A stretch of 59,919 nt of DNA, taken from the UHGV virus genome UHGV-0342645. One strand, written 5' to 3'. The position numbers and the translations under genes were made by a program. Numbering within the stretch: position 1 is the first letter of the stretch; each line of letters starts with the position of its first letter. This DNA is from a virus. The notes below the pieces were generated by a model. The model was not told the DNA's origin and did not search any database. It was given only the letters and a program-made list of their open reading frames with translations. Positions 28,629 to 34,649 of the stretch are shown piece after piece.

Positions 28629-28655
28629 TATCAAAACATATCACGTTATAATGAA

Positions 28656-28682
28656 GGCGCCCAATGAGGCGCTTTCTTTTTC
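28656..28682 (+). terminator. rho-independent terminator
   Basis: GGCGCC-CAATGA-GGCGC followed by TTTCTTTTT. Confidence 0.55.
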
Positions 28683-28697
28683 ACTAGAGGATTTAAG

Positions 28698-29405
28698 ATG
28701 AATATTAATCAACAAGCTCCCGAGTCTCGTTCTAAAGAAAACGATATGTATTTAGACGTGCATTCGGTATTCTCTACCATTCAGGGTGAAGGTCCGTTCT
28801 GCGGCCAGCCTGCTGTATTTGTGCGCCTTGCTGGATGTAACCTGCAATGCCCAGGCTGCGACACGGATTATACTGTTGGTCGTTCTCTTTACCACATTGT
28901 TGATATCATGCGTTTAATCGAAAGCCGTAAGCTGGAATCAGGCAATAGCACCTCACTTGTGGTTATTACTGGGGGTGAACCGTTCCGTCAGCAAATTAAC
29001 CCGCTTATTGAACAACTGTTATCGCGGGGCTATTTGGTGCAAATCGAAACTAATGGGTCTATGCCTTTACCTAAGAACTTTTCCCAGTTGCCTGTGATTG
29101 TATGTAGCCCCAAGACCTCAAAGATTCATCCTTCTGTGCTTTACCGCGCTAATGCATTTAAATATGTACTTAAAGCGTGCTGTGTAAACGTGGAAGATGG
29201 TTTACCCCTTCAAGCATTAGATCATCAAGCTACGCCATTTATCGCTAGACCTCCGAAGGGGTTCAAGGGTAAGATATATTTACAGCCAATGGACGAGCAG
29301 GATGAAGACCTTAACCACAGTAACATCCAAGCGGTTGTCCAAAGCTGTATGAAACACGGATACACGTTGCAGCTTCAGGTTCACAAATATATCGGGGTGG
29401 AATAA
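28698..29405 (+). CDS. queE: 7-carboxy-7-deazaguanine synthase (radical SAM)
   Basis: GEGPFCGQPAVFVRLAGCNLQCPGCDTDY matches the QueE Cx14CxxC radical-SAM region; GAGGA RBS. Confidence 0.8.
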   Translation: MNINQQAPESRSKENDMYLDVHSVFSTIQGEGPFCGQPAVFVRLAGCNLQCPGCDTDYTVGRSLYHIVDIMRLIESRKLESGNSTSLVVITGGEPFRQQINPLIEQLLSRGYLVQIETNGSMPLPKNFSQLPVIVCSPKTSKIHPSVLYRANAFKYVLKACCVNVEDGLPLQALDHQATPFIARPPKGFKGKIYLQPMDEQDEDLNHSNIQAVVQSCMKHGYTLQLQVHKYIGVE

Positions 29406-29659
29406 TGCGTGTGTTAAGTCGGGTTGTGCATACTAAAGATGTTAATTTTTATGGTGTCACTTTAACCGTTCCAAGTCGAGTTGATTATCTGGCAGCTGAC
29501 AAGGATGGAAAGGTTTGTGGGTATGAAGTAGCTCCTCCAGAACTCAGTCATCGATTTGATAGATGGCTGCCAGCAGATCCGGGAGCTTACGAGTACGATG
29601 AAATAGCTTATGTAGACCTTGAAGGCTTAGACTGGACTCAAACATTAAGGGAGGTTTAA
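29405..29659 (+). CDS. hypothetical protein (paralog of 8050..8352)
   Basis: 84 aa; shares a DxDGxVxGY...VDLEGxDWxxTLxE signature with the early-arm ORF. Confidence 0.45.
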   Translation: MRVLSRVVHTKDVNFYGVTLTVPSRVDYLAADKDGKVCGYEVAPPELSHRFDRWLPADPGAYEYDEIAYVDLEGLDWTQTLREV

Positions 29660-29872
29660 ATGATCACTTTAGAAGAAGCGAAACAGCATCAGGAAATGAT
29701 CACTGAGATTGTAGAAAAACTTAATTCTGCAATTGCTCACGCTACTATGCAGGGTGTACATGTTGAATTAGATATTAACCACGTTAGCACAATCGGAGCA
29801 CGCAATCATCCGATTGTGCTGTCAAATGTAACAATTAATCCTTGTGATATTAAAGGTGTAGAAGATGAATGA
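29660..29872 (+). CDS. hypothetical small protein (tandem paralog A)
   Basis: 70 aa; AIAHATMQGVHVELDINHV resembles AICRAASKNIHSELEIHQR of the next ORF. Confidence 0.4.
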   Translation: MITLEEAKQHQEMITEIVEKLNSAIAHATMQGVHVELDINHVSTIGARNHPIVLSNVTINPCDIKGVEDE

Positions 29873-30053
29873 AGAAACTGTAATTCTTATGCAGAAAATT
29901 CAACGTTTACAGGACGAGTTGAATGACGCTATTTGCCGCGCTGCATCCAAGAACATACATTCGGAGCTTGAAATACACCAGCGTAAGGTAACATCTGAAG
30001 CGGTGGTGGAACAAGTAGTCATTAACCTCAATATTAGTCTTAAAGGTTTCTAA
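29865..30053 (+). CDS. hypothetical small protein (tandem paralog B)
   Basis: 62 aa; similar to the preceding ORF; overlaps it by 8 nt. Confidence 0.4.
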   Translation: MNEETVILMQKIQRLQDELNDAICRAASKNIHSELEIHQRKVTSEAVVEQVVINLNISLKGF

Positions 30054-30054
30054 A

Positions 30055-30762
30055 ATGAATAAATTAGATAAACTGGTATTCCCTGTAAAAAATCATAACT
30101 CCGCCGTTGTAGTCCTGTCTGGCGGCCAGGACAGTGTGACCTGTTTAGGTCTTGCACTTAATAACTATGATAAGGTTTACGCTATTGGTTTTGCATACGG
30201 TCAACGTCATAACATTGAGCTGGCTTGTGCTAATCAAATTTGTAAAGAGCACGATGTCCCATTTGTTGTCTTTGAATTACCTGCTTTGAAACAGATTGGG
30301 AATAGCGCTTTAATCGGGGATGAAGGTGATGTTAACGAACATCACGAACAGCACAACAACCTTCCGGCAAGCTTTGTGCCAAACCGTAATGCTCTTTTCC
30401 TCACTACCGCGCACGCTTACGCACAGAAAGTTGGCGCTCGATATGTGGTTACGGGCGTTTGTGAAACAGACTATAGCGGTTATCCGGATTGCCGCCAGCA
30501 GTTTGTAAACTTGCTTGAAGCTACATTAAACGTTGGATATGAAACTGATATCCATTTTGTTACACCGCTTATGCGTTTAAATAAAGCGGAAACGTTTGAA
30601 CTGGCGGATAAGGTTGGTTTCTTAACCACAGTAATTGAACAGTCCCATACTTGCTATAACGGTGTCCGTCGCACTCTGCATGACTGGGGCTATGGTTGCG
30701 GTGAATGCCCTGCGTGCAAACTGCGTGCTAAAGGGTACAGCGAATTTATTAGCAAAGCTTAA
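30055..30762 (+). CDS. queC: 7-cyano-7-deazaguanine synthase
   Basis: PP-loop VVLSGGQDSVTC, GVCETDYSGYPDCR and C-terminal CYNG...GCGECPAC zinc-binding motif; 235 aa with no fused amidotransferase domain. Confidence 0.85.
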   Translation: MNKLDKLVFPVKNHNSAVVVLSGGQDSVTCLGLALNNYDKVYAIGFAYGQRHNIELACANQICKEHDVPFVVFELPALKQIGNSALIGDEGDVNEHHEQHNNLPASFVPNRNALFLTTAHAYAQKVGARYVVTGVCETDYSGYPDCRQQFVNLLEATLNVGYETDIHFVTPLMRLNKAETFELADKVGFLTTVIEQSHTCYNGVRRTLHDWGYGCGECPACKLRAKGYSEFISKA

Positions 30763-30882
30763 TCTTACCGCGAAAACCGCACCGCTAGCGCATTGTTTAG
30801 GGTGCGGGAACCCAACTATACTACTAAAGCTTTTAAACCCAACAACCAGCGAATACCGCTGTTAAAACTGGAGAACAAAAGT

Positions 30883-31362
30883 ATGAAATTTATCGTCGCT
30901 TATTTGGCTGCAATTACATTCGTAAATCTGGGCTTTTCCTACCTCCCAATGCTTAACACGCCTCTTGGCGTAGTCCCCATGATGGCTTTCTTTGTAGGTA
31001 TTATCTTTGTGTTGCGTGACTACGCACAGCGTAACGCTGGCAAAGGCGTTATCCCTGCAATGATTGTGGGTTGCATCCTTAGCTGGGTATTTGGGGACCC
31101 TGCTGTTGTAGTTGCATCCGTTGCATCCTTTGCTCTTAGCGAGTTTGCGGACTATGCGGTATACACGATTACTAAGAAGCCGTTTCATCAACGTGTATTT
31201 ATCAGCTCTTTGGTAGCTGTACCAATTGACTCCATTGTGTTCTTAAGTATTATAGGTATTGTTAATCCGGGATCAATGGTAGCAATGAGCTTAAGTAAGT
31301 TCACAGCATCTGCCATCCTTTGGGTTGTTTACGAAGTTCATTCACGTACAGCGAGAGCGTAA
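30883..31362 (+). CDS. yhhQ: queuosine-precursor transporter-like membrane protein (YhhQ family, putative)
   Basis: 159-aa polytopic membrane protein with VLRDYAQRN and SEFADYAVY motifs reminiscent of YhhQ; located between queC and queD. Confidence 0.45.
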   Translation: MKFIVAYLAAITFVNLGFSYLPMLNTPLGVVPMMAFFVGIIFVLRDYAQRNAGKGVIPAMIVGCILSWVFGDPAVVVASVASFALSEFADYAVYTITKKPFHQRVFISSLVAVPIDSIVFLSIIGIVNPGSMVAMSLSKFTASAILWVVYEVHSRTARA

Positions 31363-31363
31363 A

Positions 31364-31954
31364 ATGAAAGATAATTTGAATAAAATTTGGCATCAACACG
31401 ACGGTAAAGGAATGCCTATTTTTCTTCGTAATGAGAAGTTTGAAGTTCGTTTGCGCAACGGCACACACGTTAAGAATCTATTACATGGATGGGATTGGGC
31501 TATGGAAGGGCGTTCAGCTATGGATGAGAATAGCCCTTATAAAGTTCAAGATATTATAGCCTGGCGATATATTGTTGCGGATGATTACGTCAAACAAGCC
31601 GGCGAAAACACTCGCTCCGGAGTGTGCCATCAATCTTCTTCTGGAATAAGCATAAGTAATACATTTAATGGTGCAGTTTTTACGAAATATGAACCATCTA
31701 AAATTCCCATGAATAAATATCAGAAAATTATTTATGGTAAAGATCAAAACGGCAATGTTGTAAAATGCATCGTGGACGTGTATGATGTCTTGGAAGCTTG
31801 GAAAACGACTAACCCAGCTTTACAACATTTGATTAAAAAGGCGTTGCAGCCTGGCGAACGCGGTCATAAAAGTCTGGTAGAAGACTTGAAAGATATTATT
31901 GCATCTGCACAGCGTGCGTTAGAAATTGAACAGTCTAAAGAGGTGTTAAAATGA
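31364..31954 (+). CDS. uncharacterised protein inside the 7-deazaguanine cluster
   Basis: 196-aa soluble ORF between the yhhQ-like gene and queD; start 1 nt after upstream stop, stop overlaps the queD start; no motif recognised. Confidence 0.5.
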   Translation: MKDNLNKIWHQHDGKGMPIFLRNEKFEVRLRNGTHVKNLLHGWDWAMEGRSAMDENSPYKVQDIIAWRYIVADDYVKQAGENTRSGVCHQSSSGISISNTFNGAVFTKYEPSKIPMNKYQKIIYGKDQNGNVVKCIVDVYDVLEAWKTTNPALQHLIKKALQPGERGHKSLVEDLKDIIASAQRALEIEQSKEVLK

Positions 31955-32484
31955 GCTATACAGTAATTCGTTCACATGAAATTTGTGCTGGACATCGTGT
32001 TGTAGGACATGAAAGCAAGTGTCGTCATCTTCACGGTCACAACTATAAGTTTCACTTTAAGGTTGCACCGAAGCGCGTAGAAAGCGAAAACTACATCCCG
32101 GGCGCGAAAGGTTTCTCCGTTGAAGGTAAACTGGACGATGTCGGGCGCGTTATTGATTTTAGTGTGGTTAAGACTACGCTCTGTCAGTGGCTGGAAGACA
32201 ACTGGGATCACAAGTTCCTGCACTGGGAAAATGATCCTCTCATTAAAGGCCTCGATGCTCTTTTACGTCACGACGCTGCTATAGGGTATGACGTGGTAGA
32301 GCAAGAGGACGGATCCCATTTCTTTGACTCACTGGTAGCGCTACCGTTCAACCCAACTGCGGAGAACTTAGCTGCATATATGGTTAACGTAATTGGACCG
32401 CAACTACTTGACGGACATGGTGTTCAACTTGTAGAATGCACCATCGAAGAAACTTCGAAATGCCACGTAAATTATAGCCTGTAA
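31951..32484 (+). CDS. queD: 6-carboxy-5,6,7,8-tetrahydropterin synthase
   Basis: EICAGHRVVGHESKCRHLHGHNYKFHF matches the QueD/PTPS Cys and HGH zinc-binding motif. Confidence 0.75.
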   Translation: MSYTVIRSHEICAGHRVVGHESKCRHLHGHNYKFHFKVAPKRVESENYIPGAKGFSVEGKLDDVGRVIDFSVVKTTLCQWLEDNWDHKFLHWENDPLIKGLDALLRHDAAIGYDVVEQEDGSHFFDSLVALPFNPTAENLAAYMVNVIGPQLLDGHGVQLVECTIEETSKCHVNYSL

Positions 32485-32519
32485 TATGACCACATTAACA
32501 AACAAGGAAACTGCAAACC

Positions 32520-33101
32520 ATGCGTAAAGATACTGTAAAAATTGCTATTAGTTCATTACTTTTAAATATTGAAGGTTCAACAGAACTCCGTCCTGGGTTG
32601 GAAGAGACTCCTGAACGTGTCGCTAAAGCATACCAGACGTGGTTCGGCGGTTACGATGTAGATATCGCTGGATTGTTTAAAACCTTTGAGGATGGGGCTG
32701 AAAACACCAATGAAATGGTCATTGCCCGTGATATTCCTGTATACAGTCATTGTGAGCATCACATGGCTCCTATTATCGGTCATGCTGTTGTGGGTTATGT
32801 TCCCAATGGGAAGATCGTTGGGCTCAGTAAACTGTCTCGCGTAGTTGATGCTTTTAGCCGTCGCTTGCAAGTCCAAGAGCGTCTAACTAACCAGATTGCA
32901 GACGCTATCCAGGAGCATTTAAACCCGAAAGCTGTATGCGTTTATATTGACGCCAAACATATGTGCATGGAGTCGCGCGGTGTTAAGCAGGTATGCGGCA
33001 GCTCTACCATTACCAAAGCGTTCCGGGGCGCTACAGAACTGGAGCATGGTAGCGATATTGGTAAAGAATGGCGCCGGGAGTTCCTTGAAGCTTGTAAATA
33101 A
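32520..33101 (+). CDS. folE: GTP cyclohydrolase I
   Basis: CEHHMAPIIGHAVVGYVPNGKIVGLSKLSRVVDAFSRRLQVQERLTNQIA is nearly collinear with the FolE active-site region. Confidence 0.85.
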   Translation: MRKDTVKIAISSLLLNIEGSTELRPGLEETPERVAKAYQTWFGGYDVDIAGLFKTFEDGAENTNEMVIARDIPVYSHCEHHMAPIIGHAVVGYVPNGKIVGLSKLSRVVDAFSRRLQVQERLTNQIADAIQEHLNPKAVCVYIDAKHMCMESRGVKQVCGSSTITKAFRGATELEHGSDIGKEWRREFLEACK

Positions 33102-33171
33102 TAGATAGCTTTACAGATCAAGCCCATATCGGTCATAATACTGGTATGGGCTTTTTAGTTGGTATAAGACA

Positions 33172-33729
33172 ATGGAAATTATCACAAGAGCTGAAGCAAA
33201 AGAAAGAGGTTTGAAATATTATTTTACTGGTAAGCCTTGTGCGAAAGGTCATCTTTCTGAAAGAAAGACTGTAGATGGCTATTGCATTACTTGTGACAGA
33301 GAAGCACGAAAGAAAAGAATGCGTATTTACAATAAAACAGAAGCTGCAAGGAATGCTATTAAGAGATATCATAAGTCACAGAAAGGAAAAGAAGCCCTTC
33401 AACGTTCAAAAGCTGCTTATAATTCTACTGAGAAAGGTAAAGAACAAAATAAAGAAAGGCTGAAACGCTGGGCTAAGACAGATTACGGTAAAGCTAGATC
33501 AAGATTACATTCCCTTGAAGTGCATAAGAAAAGGTCTTTAAGAATCCCTGCGTGGTCTGAAAAAGAACAAATTGAATTGTTCTACGCTAACTGCCCGGAT
33601 GGGATGGAGGTTGATCATATTATACCTCTTTGCGGTAAAAGAGTTAGTGGACTTCACGTCCTTAGTAACCTACAATACTTATCTATTGAAGAAAACAGAT
33701 CTAAGCGTAATAAATTTGAGGTGGAATAA
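33172..33729 (+). CDS. HNH homing endonuclease
   Basis: C-terminal MEVDHIIPLCGKRVSGLHVLSNLQYLSIEENRSKRNK HNH motif; N-terminal Cys/His cluster; AT-rich with AGA/AGG Arg codons unlike the flanking genes. Confidence 0.7.
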   Translation: MEIITRAEAKERGLKYYFTGKPCAKGHLSERKTVDGYCITCDREARKKRMRIYNKTEAARNAIKRYHKSQKGKEALQRSKAAYNSTEKGKEQNKERLKRWAKTDYGKARSRLHSLEVHKKRSLRIPAWSEKEQIELFYANCPDGMEVDHIIPLCGKRVSGLHVLSNLQYLSIEENRSKRNKFEVE

Positions 33730-34649
33730 TGCATCTGTTTGTTGCTGCGGTATATACCAACGGCTATAAAGCTGGTCAACAACGATATGAAAAGTTAAAC
33801 GATCGGGAAAAGGACATCGTTAATAGCCTACCAAATATTTTGGAATCATACCACTACGTTGGACGTCAGAAGTATGTTGATCAAATGCGTGCGGACGGGG
33901 CTAAAGTGTTTCTCGACTCCGGAGCATTCTCCGCGCACTCGTTAGGTGCTCACATTGATATTGTCGAATATTGCGAATACATCAAACGCAATAAAGATAT
34001 CCTGCGCGTAGAAGATGGTGCTGTAATGGCGTCAGTGCTTGATGGTATCGGTGATCCACTGCAAACCTACCGTAACCAGCTTGAAATGGAAGCACGCGGT
34101 GCTAAACCGTTACCTTGCTTTCACTTTGGGGAGGACTTCCGCTATCTCGAATATTACATGAAGAACTACGAATATATCACCATCGGGGGCATGGTAGGGC
34201 GTTCCACGGACACGCTTAAAACTTGGCTTGACCGCATGTGGGATAAATATATTTGCGATGGTAGCGGTCGCCCTAAGATTAAGCTTCATGCATTTGGTAT
34301 TACGTCCACTACCATTATGGAACGTTACCCGTGGTATAGCTGTGACTCATCCTCCTGGATTCAAGCGGCAGCGTTTGGAAGTGTGGTTACTCCTCCGTGG
34401 GGCCCGATGCGCGTATCTGACAAGTCACCGGACCGACACCATTTCGGTAAGCACGTTTCAACGCTAACTGAAATTGAACAAGACGCTGTCCTTAAATACC
34501 TTGAGCAAAACGGTTTCACTTACGAACGTTTATCAACAATCTATGAATCACGTGCTGCCTTCAACTTATGGGCGTATGGTGTAATTGCTGCAAACATTAA
34601 CGCTACCCATGACGGCACATTCCGTGATCGTGTAATGGAGTTGTTCTGA
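33729..34649 (+). CDS. dpdA: DpdA-like DNA-guanine transglycosylase (TGT family)
   Basis: KVFLDSGAFS and ITIGGMVGRS segments typical of DpdA/TGT TIM-barrel proteins; 306 aa; embedded in the que cluster. Confidence 0.65.
   Translation: MHLFVAAVYTNGYKAGQQRYEKLNDREKDIVNSLPNILESYHYVGRQKYVDQMRADGAKVFLDSGAFSAHSLGAHIDIVEYCEYIKRNKDILRVEDGAVMASVLDGIGDPLQTYRNQLEMEARGAKPLPCFHFGEDFRYLEYYMKNYEYITIGGMVGRSTDTLKTWLDRMWDKYICDGSGRPKIKLHAFGITSTTIMERYPWYSCDSSSWIQAAAFGSVVTPPWGPMRVSDKSPDRHHFGKHVSTLTEIEQDAVLKYLEQNGFTYERLSTIYESRAAFNLWAYGVIAANINATHDGTFRDRVMELF

Follow-up and report, generated by a model that had tools for sequence, protein, structure and literature searches.

A short YhhQ-like membrane protein recurrently associated with DpdA in phages: putative importer of a 7-deazaguanine base

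The gene situated directly downstream of queC in virus genome UHGV-0342645 most likely encodes a compact importer of a 7-deazaguanine base, which would feed the DNA guanine transglycosylase DpdA encoded in the same cluster. We give this reading a probability of about 0.68, and we infer the substrate, the direction and the energy source of the transporter from sequence comparisons. The strongest functional evidence for it is the comparative genomic context with DpdA. GenBank annotations and at least three papers already contain the gene, its name and the salvage hypothesis; the identification is thus a correct rediscovery and, since annotation and hypothesis precede it, has little weight as a discovery. 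Our additions are the recognition of a separate short, mainly viral branch of the family, the quantification of its adjacency to DpdA, the mismatch between selection and deletion phenotype, and the indication that a published deletion of the orthologue in phage CAjan probably truncates a second gene, gp40.

Gene, start site and cluster

In the window, i.e. the whole stretch of 59,919 nucleotides analysed here, the genes of the cluster lie on the same strand in the order queE, three small ORFs, queC, transporter gene, 196-aa ORF, queD, folE, 185-aa ORF and dpdA (Table 1). DpdA presumably consumes the base that is transported. An earlier note on this DNA had described a 159-aa ORF between queC and queD. 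The ORF was found as described, on the plus strand with an ATG and an upstream GGAG. Concerning its position, queC is indeed upstream and queD downstream, but the 196-aa ORF separates the transporter gene from queD. This ORF begins 1 nt past the transporter stop codon (TAA-A-ATG), and it had no match in Pfam, NCBIfam or PDB. An alternative TTG start at 30793 would extend the transporter to 189 aa. This longer version is unlikely because homologues share the MKF... N-terminus that begins at the ATG, and the ATG at 30883 is therefore the likely start.

Table 1. Features of the 7-deazaguanine cluster in the window
Feature	Coordinates	Strand	Basis and remarks
Terminator-like hairpin, 5′ of queE	28653..28676	+	Consensus scan only
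queE (7-carboxy-7-deazaguanine synthase, radical SAM)	28698..29405	+	NCBIfam QueE models E 4e-28; Pfam Radical_SAM
Three small ORFs (84, 70, 62 aa), queE-queC gap	29405-30053	+	84-aa ORF is phrog_1972
queC (7-cyano-7-deazaguanine, i.e. preQ0, synthase), directly 5′ of transporter gene	30055..30762	+	Pfam QueC 251 bits; TIGR00364 242 bits
GGAG, Shine-Dalgarno-like	30870..30873	+	9 nt 5′ of the ATG; read from sequence
Putative transporter ORF	30883..31362	+	ATG start, 159 aa; short VUT/QPTR (YhhQ-like, PF02592) inner membrane protein, putative 7-deazaguanine (preQ0) importer
196-aa ORF, CAjan gp40 orthologue	31364..31954	+	phrog_23361 E 4e-101; CAjan annotation
queD (6-carboxytetrahydropterin synthase), long 177-aa form	31951..32484	+	Pfam PTPS 78 bits; TIGR03367
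folE (GTP cyclohydrolase I)	32520..33101	+	Pfam GTP_cyclohydroI 210 bits
Terminator-like hairpin, 3′ of folE	33120..33153	+	14-bp stem then T run; consensus scan only
185-aa ORF, folE-dpdA gap	33172-33729	+	H-N-H-looking C-terminal motif by eye
dpdA (DNA guanine transglycosylase, inserts preQ0 into DNA)	33729..34649	+	phrog_887 E 1.2e-94; 95-99.7% identical to DpdA of Seuratvirus-type phages

The scan for promoters and terminators returned site counts equal to the chance expectation. The hairpins at 28653 and 33120 could possibly bracket queE to folE as one transcription unit, on the basis of this consensus scan with its chance-level site count. Many bacterial QPTR/YhhQ members, though not all, are preceded by a preQ1 riboswitch, which is not required. 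None was found upstream of the phage gene, where an Rfam scan of positions 30600-31000 at E≤10 gave only a chance match to a snoRNA. The 120-nt spacer 5′ of the gene shows modest folding (z = -2.0).

Several neighbouring genes call for separate remarks. The queD product is unusually long, the 121-position PTPS model being stretched across residues 5-175 of the 177 aa. Moreover, queD nucleotide identity to relatives is 76-78% with gaps, the neighbouring genes reaching 91-95% there, which suggests a mosaic or exchanged segment. The 84-aa ORF of the queE-queC gap is missing or truncated in some relatives. CAjan carries only a 68-aa ORF where the window has the 185-aa ORF; the latter had no match in Pfam, NCBIfam or PDB and may be a mobile endonuclease insertion.

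Family membership and predicted topology

The single transporter sequence matches Pfam Vut_1 (PF02592, DUF165) over residues 66-145 with 25.5 bits (E 1.9e-5), 1.7 bits under the gathering score of 27.2 bits. All 54 aligned relatives match the same model at E≤1e-3, the best at 3.3e-11. The match to TIGR00697, 'queuosine precursor transporter', covers only residues 70-128 and its 21.7 bits lie far below the equivalog cutoff of 50.95 bits. The protein also belongs to PHROG 4899 (E 4.4e-48), a family labelled 'unknown function'. Among 5.8 billion proteins searched, we found 118 relatives, most of them 153-190 aa long and many with a precomputed PF02592 assignment. Among them is a bacterial group of 187-201 aa whose source name is 'queuosine precursor transporter'.

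E. coli YhhQ gives no significant BLASTP match (E=1.3), and homology is therefore argued via profiles. In collinear order, the profile built from the 54 relatives aligns its residues 6-72 with 18-87 and its residues 74-134 with 109-171 of E. coli YhhQ (16.6 bits), and hhalign against enterobacterial YhhQ gives Prob 52% and E 1.5e-4. Several motifs correspond in this alignment: D46/R50/G53 of the phage protein to D57/R61/G64 of YhhQ, S86-E87-x-x-D90 to G-Q-x-x-D126, and D116-S-x-x-F120 to D154-T-x-x-F. The likeness to YhhQ put forward in the earlier note is thus upheld by a family match that is sub-threshold for the single sequence but present in every aligned relative, and by collinearity with TM1-TM5 of the E. 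coli protein. A profile of the short branch found just 2,032 matches among 1.84 billion representatives, and we consider it therefore as a distinct short, mainly viral branch. On sequence grounds, the transporter is a member of this short VUT/QPTR branch, and E. coli YhhQ is not its orthologue. Given this distance, substrate specificity is not safely transferable from one to the other.

QueT/QrtT is the other known family of Q-precursor transporters. It was unmatched, the Pfam scan of the transporter protein at E≤0.01 giving Vut_1 alone. Domain fusions among longer family members, used as a Rosetta-stone test, revealed nothing informative (one RseA_N and one weak HD-like match), and these longer members are probably mis-called ORFs.

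The hydropathy profile displays six peaks, at about residues 3-21, 28-44, 55-71, 73-96, 104-126 and 130-150. Averaged over the 54 sequences, K+R residues are concentrated in four segments, namely the N-terminus (1.2), loop 45-54 (2.3), loop 97-104 (3.0) and the C-tail (2.7), and are practically missing from loops 21-27 (0.00), 71-73 (0.02) and 125-130 (0.00). This positive-inside pattern most likely reflects six TM helices with both termini inside (N-in/C-in), in agreement with published statements on YhhQ (PMC5372724). The protein is polytopic, as the earlier note had stated, and its six hydrophobic segments, with charges that fit 6 TM, are not fewer than a transporter core needs.

The two AF2 models (pLDDT 79 and 80), the second obtained with a deeper alignment, show helices 2-20, 38-70, 73/76-96, 101-124 and 129-158 with a small hairpin at 23-32. 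Both runs draw 38-70 as one helix and not as a TM2-turn-TM3 hairpin. This helix crosses the kink-prone stretch G53-K-G55-x-x-P58 and conflicts with the charge-based turn at 45-54, which makes the difference between 5 and 6 TM. Foldseek comparison of the AF2 model with the PDB gave nothing significant, TM-scores to S-components being 0.42-0.45, and the family profile, run against the PDB sequences, found no relative with a solved structure. Against BFVD, Foldseek returned one good unnamed match, and a 244-aa 'putative vitamin uptake transporter' at E 0.19.

Invariant residues of the family are mostly polar and located within or at the ends of hydrophobic segments (N15, R45, D46, Q49, E87, D90, S108 and D116), a disposition typical of a ligand site. 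These residues bear on the idea that the protein does not transport at all and acts, for example, in superinfection exclusion, in lysis timing or in anchoring the modification or replication machinery to the membrane. Such a role would suit a small and very hydrophobic protein, as well as the PHROG label and the unchanged modification of a CAjan deletion mutant. It fits poorly with the homology to a transporter family, with the position of invariant N15, D46, Q49, E87, D90 and D116 inside hydrophobic segments, as in a binding site, with the consistent partnership with a base-exchanging enzyme, and with the location of the gene in an early/metabolic module and not in the lysis module. We consider a non-transport role extremely improbable.

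Association with DpdA and nature of the substrate

Annotated phage records include the transporter gene in 75 cases and a DpdA homologue in 242. Rhizobium phages are present in both lists (14 and 14), as is Aminobacter phage Erebus. All 56 Mycobacterium and all 34 Pseudomonas DpdA records fall outside the 75 transporter records, among which is found at most 1 of the 8 'Enterobacteria phage' (Nonagvirus-type) DpdA records.

A scan of IMG/VR, using local iterative HMMs for DpdA and the synthesis genes, gave 80 loci that represent 26 clusters at 70% identity. A DpdA-type ORF is located within 10 kb of the transporter gene in 67 of the 80. It lies immediately downstream on the same strand in 48 loci (9 clusters), where none of the four synthesis genes occurs in the flanks examined. 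In another 19 loci (12 clusters) DpdA is found 1.5-9 kb downstream, and 18 of these 19 carry all four synthesis genes. The other 13 loci have no DpdA in the sequence examined. Among 10 representatives of the adjacent DpdA-type ORFs, 7 belong to phrog_887, as does the DpdA of the window, and 3 to phrog_15826.

Similar arrangements exist in named phages. In Vibrio phages K392 and PS25B.1, dpdA (phrog_887) overlaps the transporter gene. The order in Arthrobacter phage Aoka is Vut, QueF-like, 'DpdA-like', and the neighbour of the transporter in Roseobacter phage CRP-701 is 49% identical to the DpdA-like protein of Aoka. QueC, QueE, QueD and FolE were not detected in these four complete genomes. 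The QueF-like protein of Aoka, gp39 (L004 5486-5815), is annotated as 'hypothetical protein' and matches Pfam QueF-like with 29.5 bits, above the cutoff of 27.3. A QueF-like enzyme would consume preQ0.

The phrog_15826 proteins, of about 200 aa, occupy the usual DpdA position beside the short transporter (L004 5820-6446, L006 3721-4320, L011 8468-9091), and ORFs of this type also adjoin it at L049, L073 and L086. They are annotated 'DpdA-like' in Aoka versus 'ssDNA-binding protein' in CRP-701. Comparison of phrog_15826 with DpdA by hhalign gives Prob 47% and E 1.9e-4, with the DNGCF/DSGAFS and IGG motifs aligned. On this alignment, phrog_15826 may be a miniature DpdA.

Outside typical phage genomes, an integrase-bearing element of Shewanella displays the order helicase-TGT(PF01702)-Vut, in which TGT and Vut overlap. 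On a bacterial metagenome contig (L010 5274-6576), which carries the closest cellular branch, a gene for a 255-aa QueC runs into the beginning of a 191-aa Vut_1 gene; the syntenic locus (L009) is without QueC. No queuosine genes were found near another bacterial relative (P0108), and no DpdA is in view on a T4-like contig that carries a further relative (P0059).

The substrate is the weakest link in the argument, because specificity varies among family members. The protein could be a transporter of the same fold for another compound, such as CDG, preQ1, queuine or an unrelated purine or vitamin, the name 'preQ0 transporter' then being a mislabel taken from E. coli YhhQ. The remote similarity to YhhQ, far below the equivalog cutoff, would allow this, and the position right after queC in the window and on the bacterial contig would fit import of CDG, the QueC substrate, too. 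Another substrate is also favoured by the replication-module setting, beside SSB and nuclease genes, observed in Rhizobium phages, Vibrio phage 1.207.B and CRP-701. However, the recurrent partner is DpdA, often without QueC, which points to a base usable by DpdA itself or by a QueF-like enzyme together with DpdA, and the DNA of CAjan-type phages contains dPreQ0. Another substrate is therefore rather unlikely in our estimation, and a base that feeds DpdA remains the preferred reading.

Selection, the CAjan deletion and known systems

The window is the DNA of a Seuratvirus-type (Queuovirinae) E. coli phage, and its cluster region has 91-94% nucleotide identity with other phages of this type, for instance ECP2304, Seurat, CAjan, Greed and CSP1. 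An identical protein (100%) occurs in CSP1C, WildeMaa, Seurat and others, and CAjan gp41 shares 98.7% of its residues. Several of these records, including CAjan gp41, are annotated 'putative preQ0 transporter', a term also used for the CAjan orthologue in the literature (PMC7544227, PMC6884629, PMC8310023). The salvage of preQ0 which the earlier note had proposed, and which our analysis supports, is thus the interpretation already published for this orthologue. Kot et al. 2020 named the CAjan gene yhhQ, one of six assignable genes in a 12-gene cluster (PMC7544227). YhhQ homologues in some phages were reported by Hutinet et al. 2019 (PMC6884629), and the EC151 paper discusses the same protein and gives its tree (PMC8310023).

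CAjan DNA carries about 44 dPreQ0 per 1000 nt (PMC7544227). Deletion of folE or queC leaves about 1/12 of the modification, which is host-supplied, whereas deletion of yhhQ keeps the wild-type modification in BHI, a rich medium (PMC7544227). Import is thus not needed under laboratory conditions. The ΔyhhQ genome is described as lacking 550 bp, and 31,850 is given as the position of the deletion (Table 1 of PMC7544227). In the CAjan record NC_028776, the yhhQ CDS occupies 32,084-32,563 and gp40 31,513-32,082. Comparison of these coordinates with the deletion position indicates that ΔyhhQ probably truncates gp40 too, and the reported lack of phenotype may consequently apply to both genes.

In comparison with three close relatives, the transporter gene of the window shows 26-40 synonymous and 1-3 non-synonymous differences (dN/dS 0.010-0.030). 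The corresponding ratios are 0.03-0.04 for queE, 0.02-0.03 for queC, 0.016 for folE and 0-0.05 for dpdA; the small ORFs between queE and queC have higher values, 0.05-0.30, than the transporter and the enzymes. The gene is real and under strong purifying selection, as constrained as the pathway enzymes. That the ORF would not be a real gene is ruled out by these ratios and by the 118 homologues. An enzyme-like constraint without any effect of deletion in rich medium implies that the selective value of the gene lies in conditions not yet tried.

At 44 dPreQ0 per 1000 nt, a 60-kb dsDNA genome would demand about 5,000 bases. External pools in the nanomolar range would hardly suffice for an entire burst, and salvage could therefore only top up de novo synthesis in this phage, which is consistent with the CAjan deletion. 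This demand, far above any plausible external supply, could also be taken as a sign that the protein works in retention or outward, recapturing leaked preQ0 or exporting a deazapurine intermediate without scavenging from the environment. The host has its own yhhQ, which makes simple salvage look redundant, and the strong purifying selection despite the silent deletion in rich medium could be explained in the same way. On the other hand, cassettes of DpdA and transporter without synthesis genes need net import or a host-made base, not export. A role mainly in retention or export seems to us very improbable, and we keep import towards DpdA as the explanation.

According to this explanation, the protein would be a compact inner membrane transporter of the VUT/QPTR group (COG1738), most likely built of six TM helices with cytoplasmic N- and C-termini, and resembling a solitary ECF S-component. 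It would be made during infection together with QueE, QueC, QueD, FolE and DpdA, and would bring preQ0 or a near relative (CDG, preQ1), either external or leaked from the cell, into the cytoplasm, where DpdA would exchange the imported base for guanine in phage DNA. Since DpdA insertion is irreversible, we suppose that it acts as metabolic trapping and pulls uptake without an ATPase module. Without YhhQ, E. coli does not salvage preQ0 or preQ1 supplied at 10 nM, and this species has no ECF module (PMC5372724). As the energising module is missing there, the transporter would act alone or as an oligomer. In phages with the full pathway, such as that of the window, it would be auxiliary and supplement de novo synthesis; in phages having only DpdA and the transporter, supply of the base would depend on it as a dedicated route.

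A broader proposal can be made, which we hold tentatively and somewhat below even odds. The short branch (about 150-190 aa) could be a virus-specialised partner of DpdA, forming with it a two-gene 'import-and-insert' cassette by which phages without preQ0 synthesis genes would use scavenged 7-deazaguanine bases to hypermodify their DNA. For Seuratviruses with the full pathway, the transporter would then matter only outside rich-medium conditions, where the base may come from leakage, lysed neighbours or the microbiota, and its specificity may differ from that of E. coli YhhQ. If the DpdA-transporter pair is functional, hypermodification in the many uncultured phages that carry it without synthesis genes nearby would depend on deazapurines which the host or the surrounding community produces. 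If true, this would link phage anti-restriction defence to the exchange of queuosine precursors in microbiomes.

Among known systems, the nearest are CAjan gp41 'yhhQ' (NC_028776, 32084-32563) and the orthologues of Seuratvirus-type phages and Enterobacter phage EC151, with the same queC-queD position in the same 7-deazaguanine cluster. Between CAjan and the window there is essentially no difference except in neighbouring ORFs. Solitary ECF S-components (BtuM, BioY, RibU) are more distant, with 8-17% identity to the phage protein, whose AF2 model is without the TM2/TM3 hairpin. Specificity differs within the family, E. coli QPTR taking preQ0 and preQ1 and the Chlamydia protein queuine only (PMC11130926). 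The Chlamydia trachomatis QPTR, likened here from its literature description, thus belongs to the same superfamily but transports queuine and not preQ0/preQ1. E. coli YhhQ/QPTR (COG1738, TIGR00697) shares with the phage protein the Vut_1 domain, the collinearity of TM1-TM5, and the D..R..G, S/G-E/Q-x-x-D and D-S/T-x-x-F motifs. Six TM helices and a cytoplasmic C-terminus are predicted for YhhQ, with which the charge pattern of the phage family would agree, and YhhQ is linked to queuosine/deazaguanine genes as is the phage branch. The phage protein is shorter, as the earlier note had remarked, with 159 aa versus 221 aa. The 62 missing residues correspond to the N-terminal extension of YhhQ, a stretch of about 21 residues that separates TM3 from TM4, the long loop joining TM5 to TM6, and the C-tail; these are extensions and loops, and all the helices of the E. 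coli transporter are probably kept in the phage protein.
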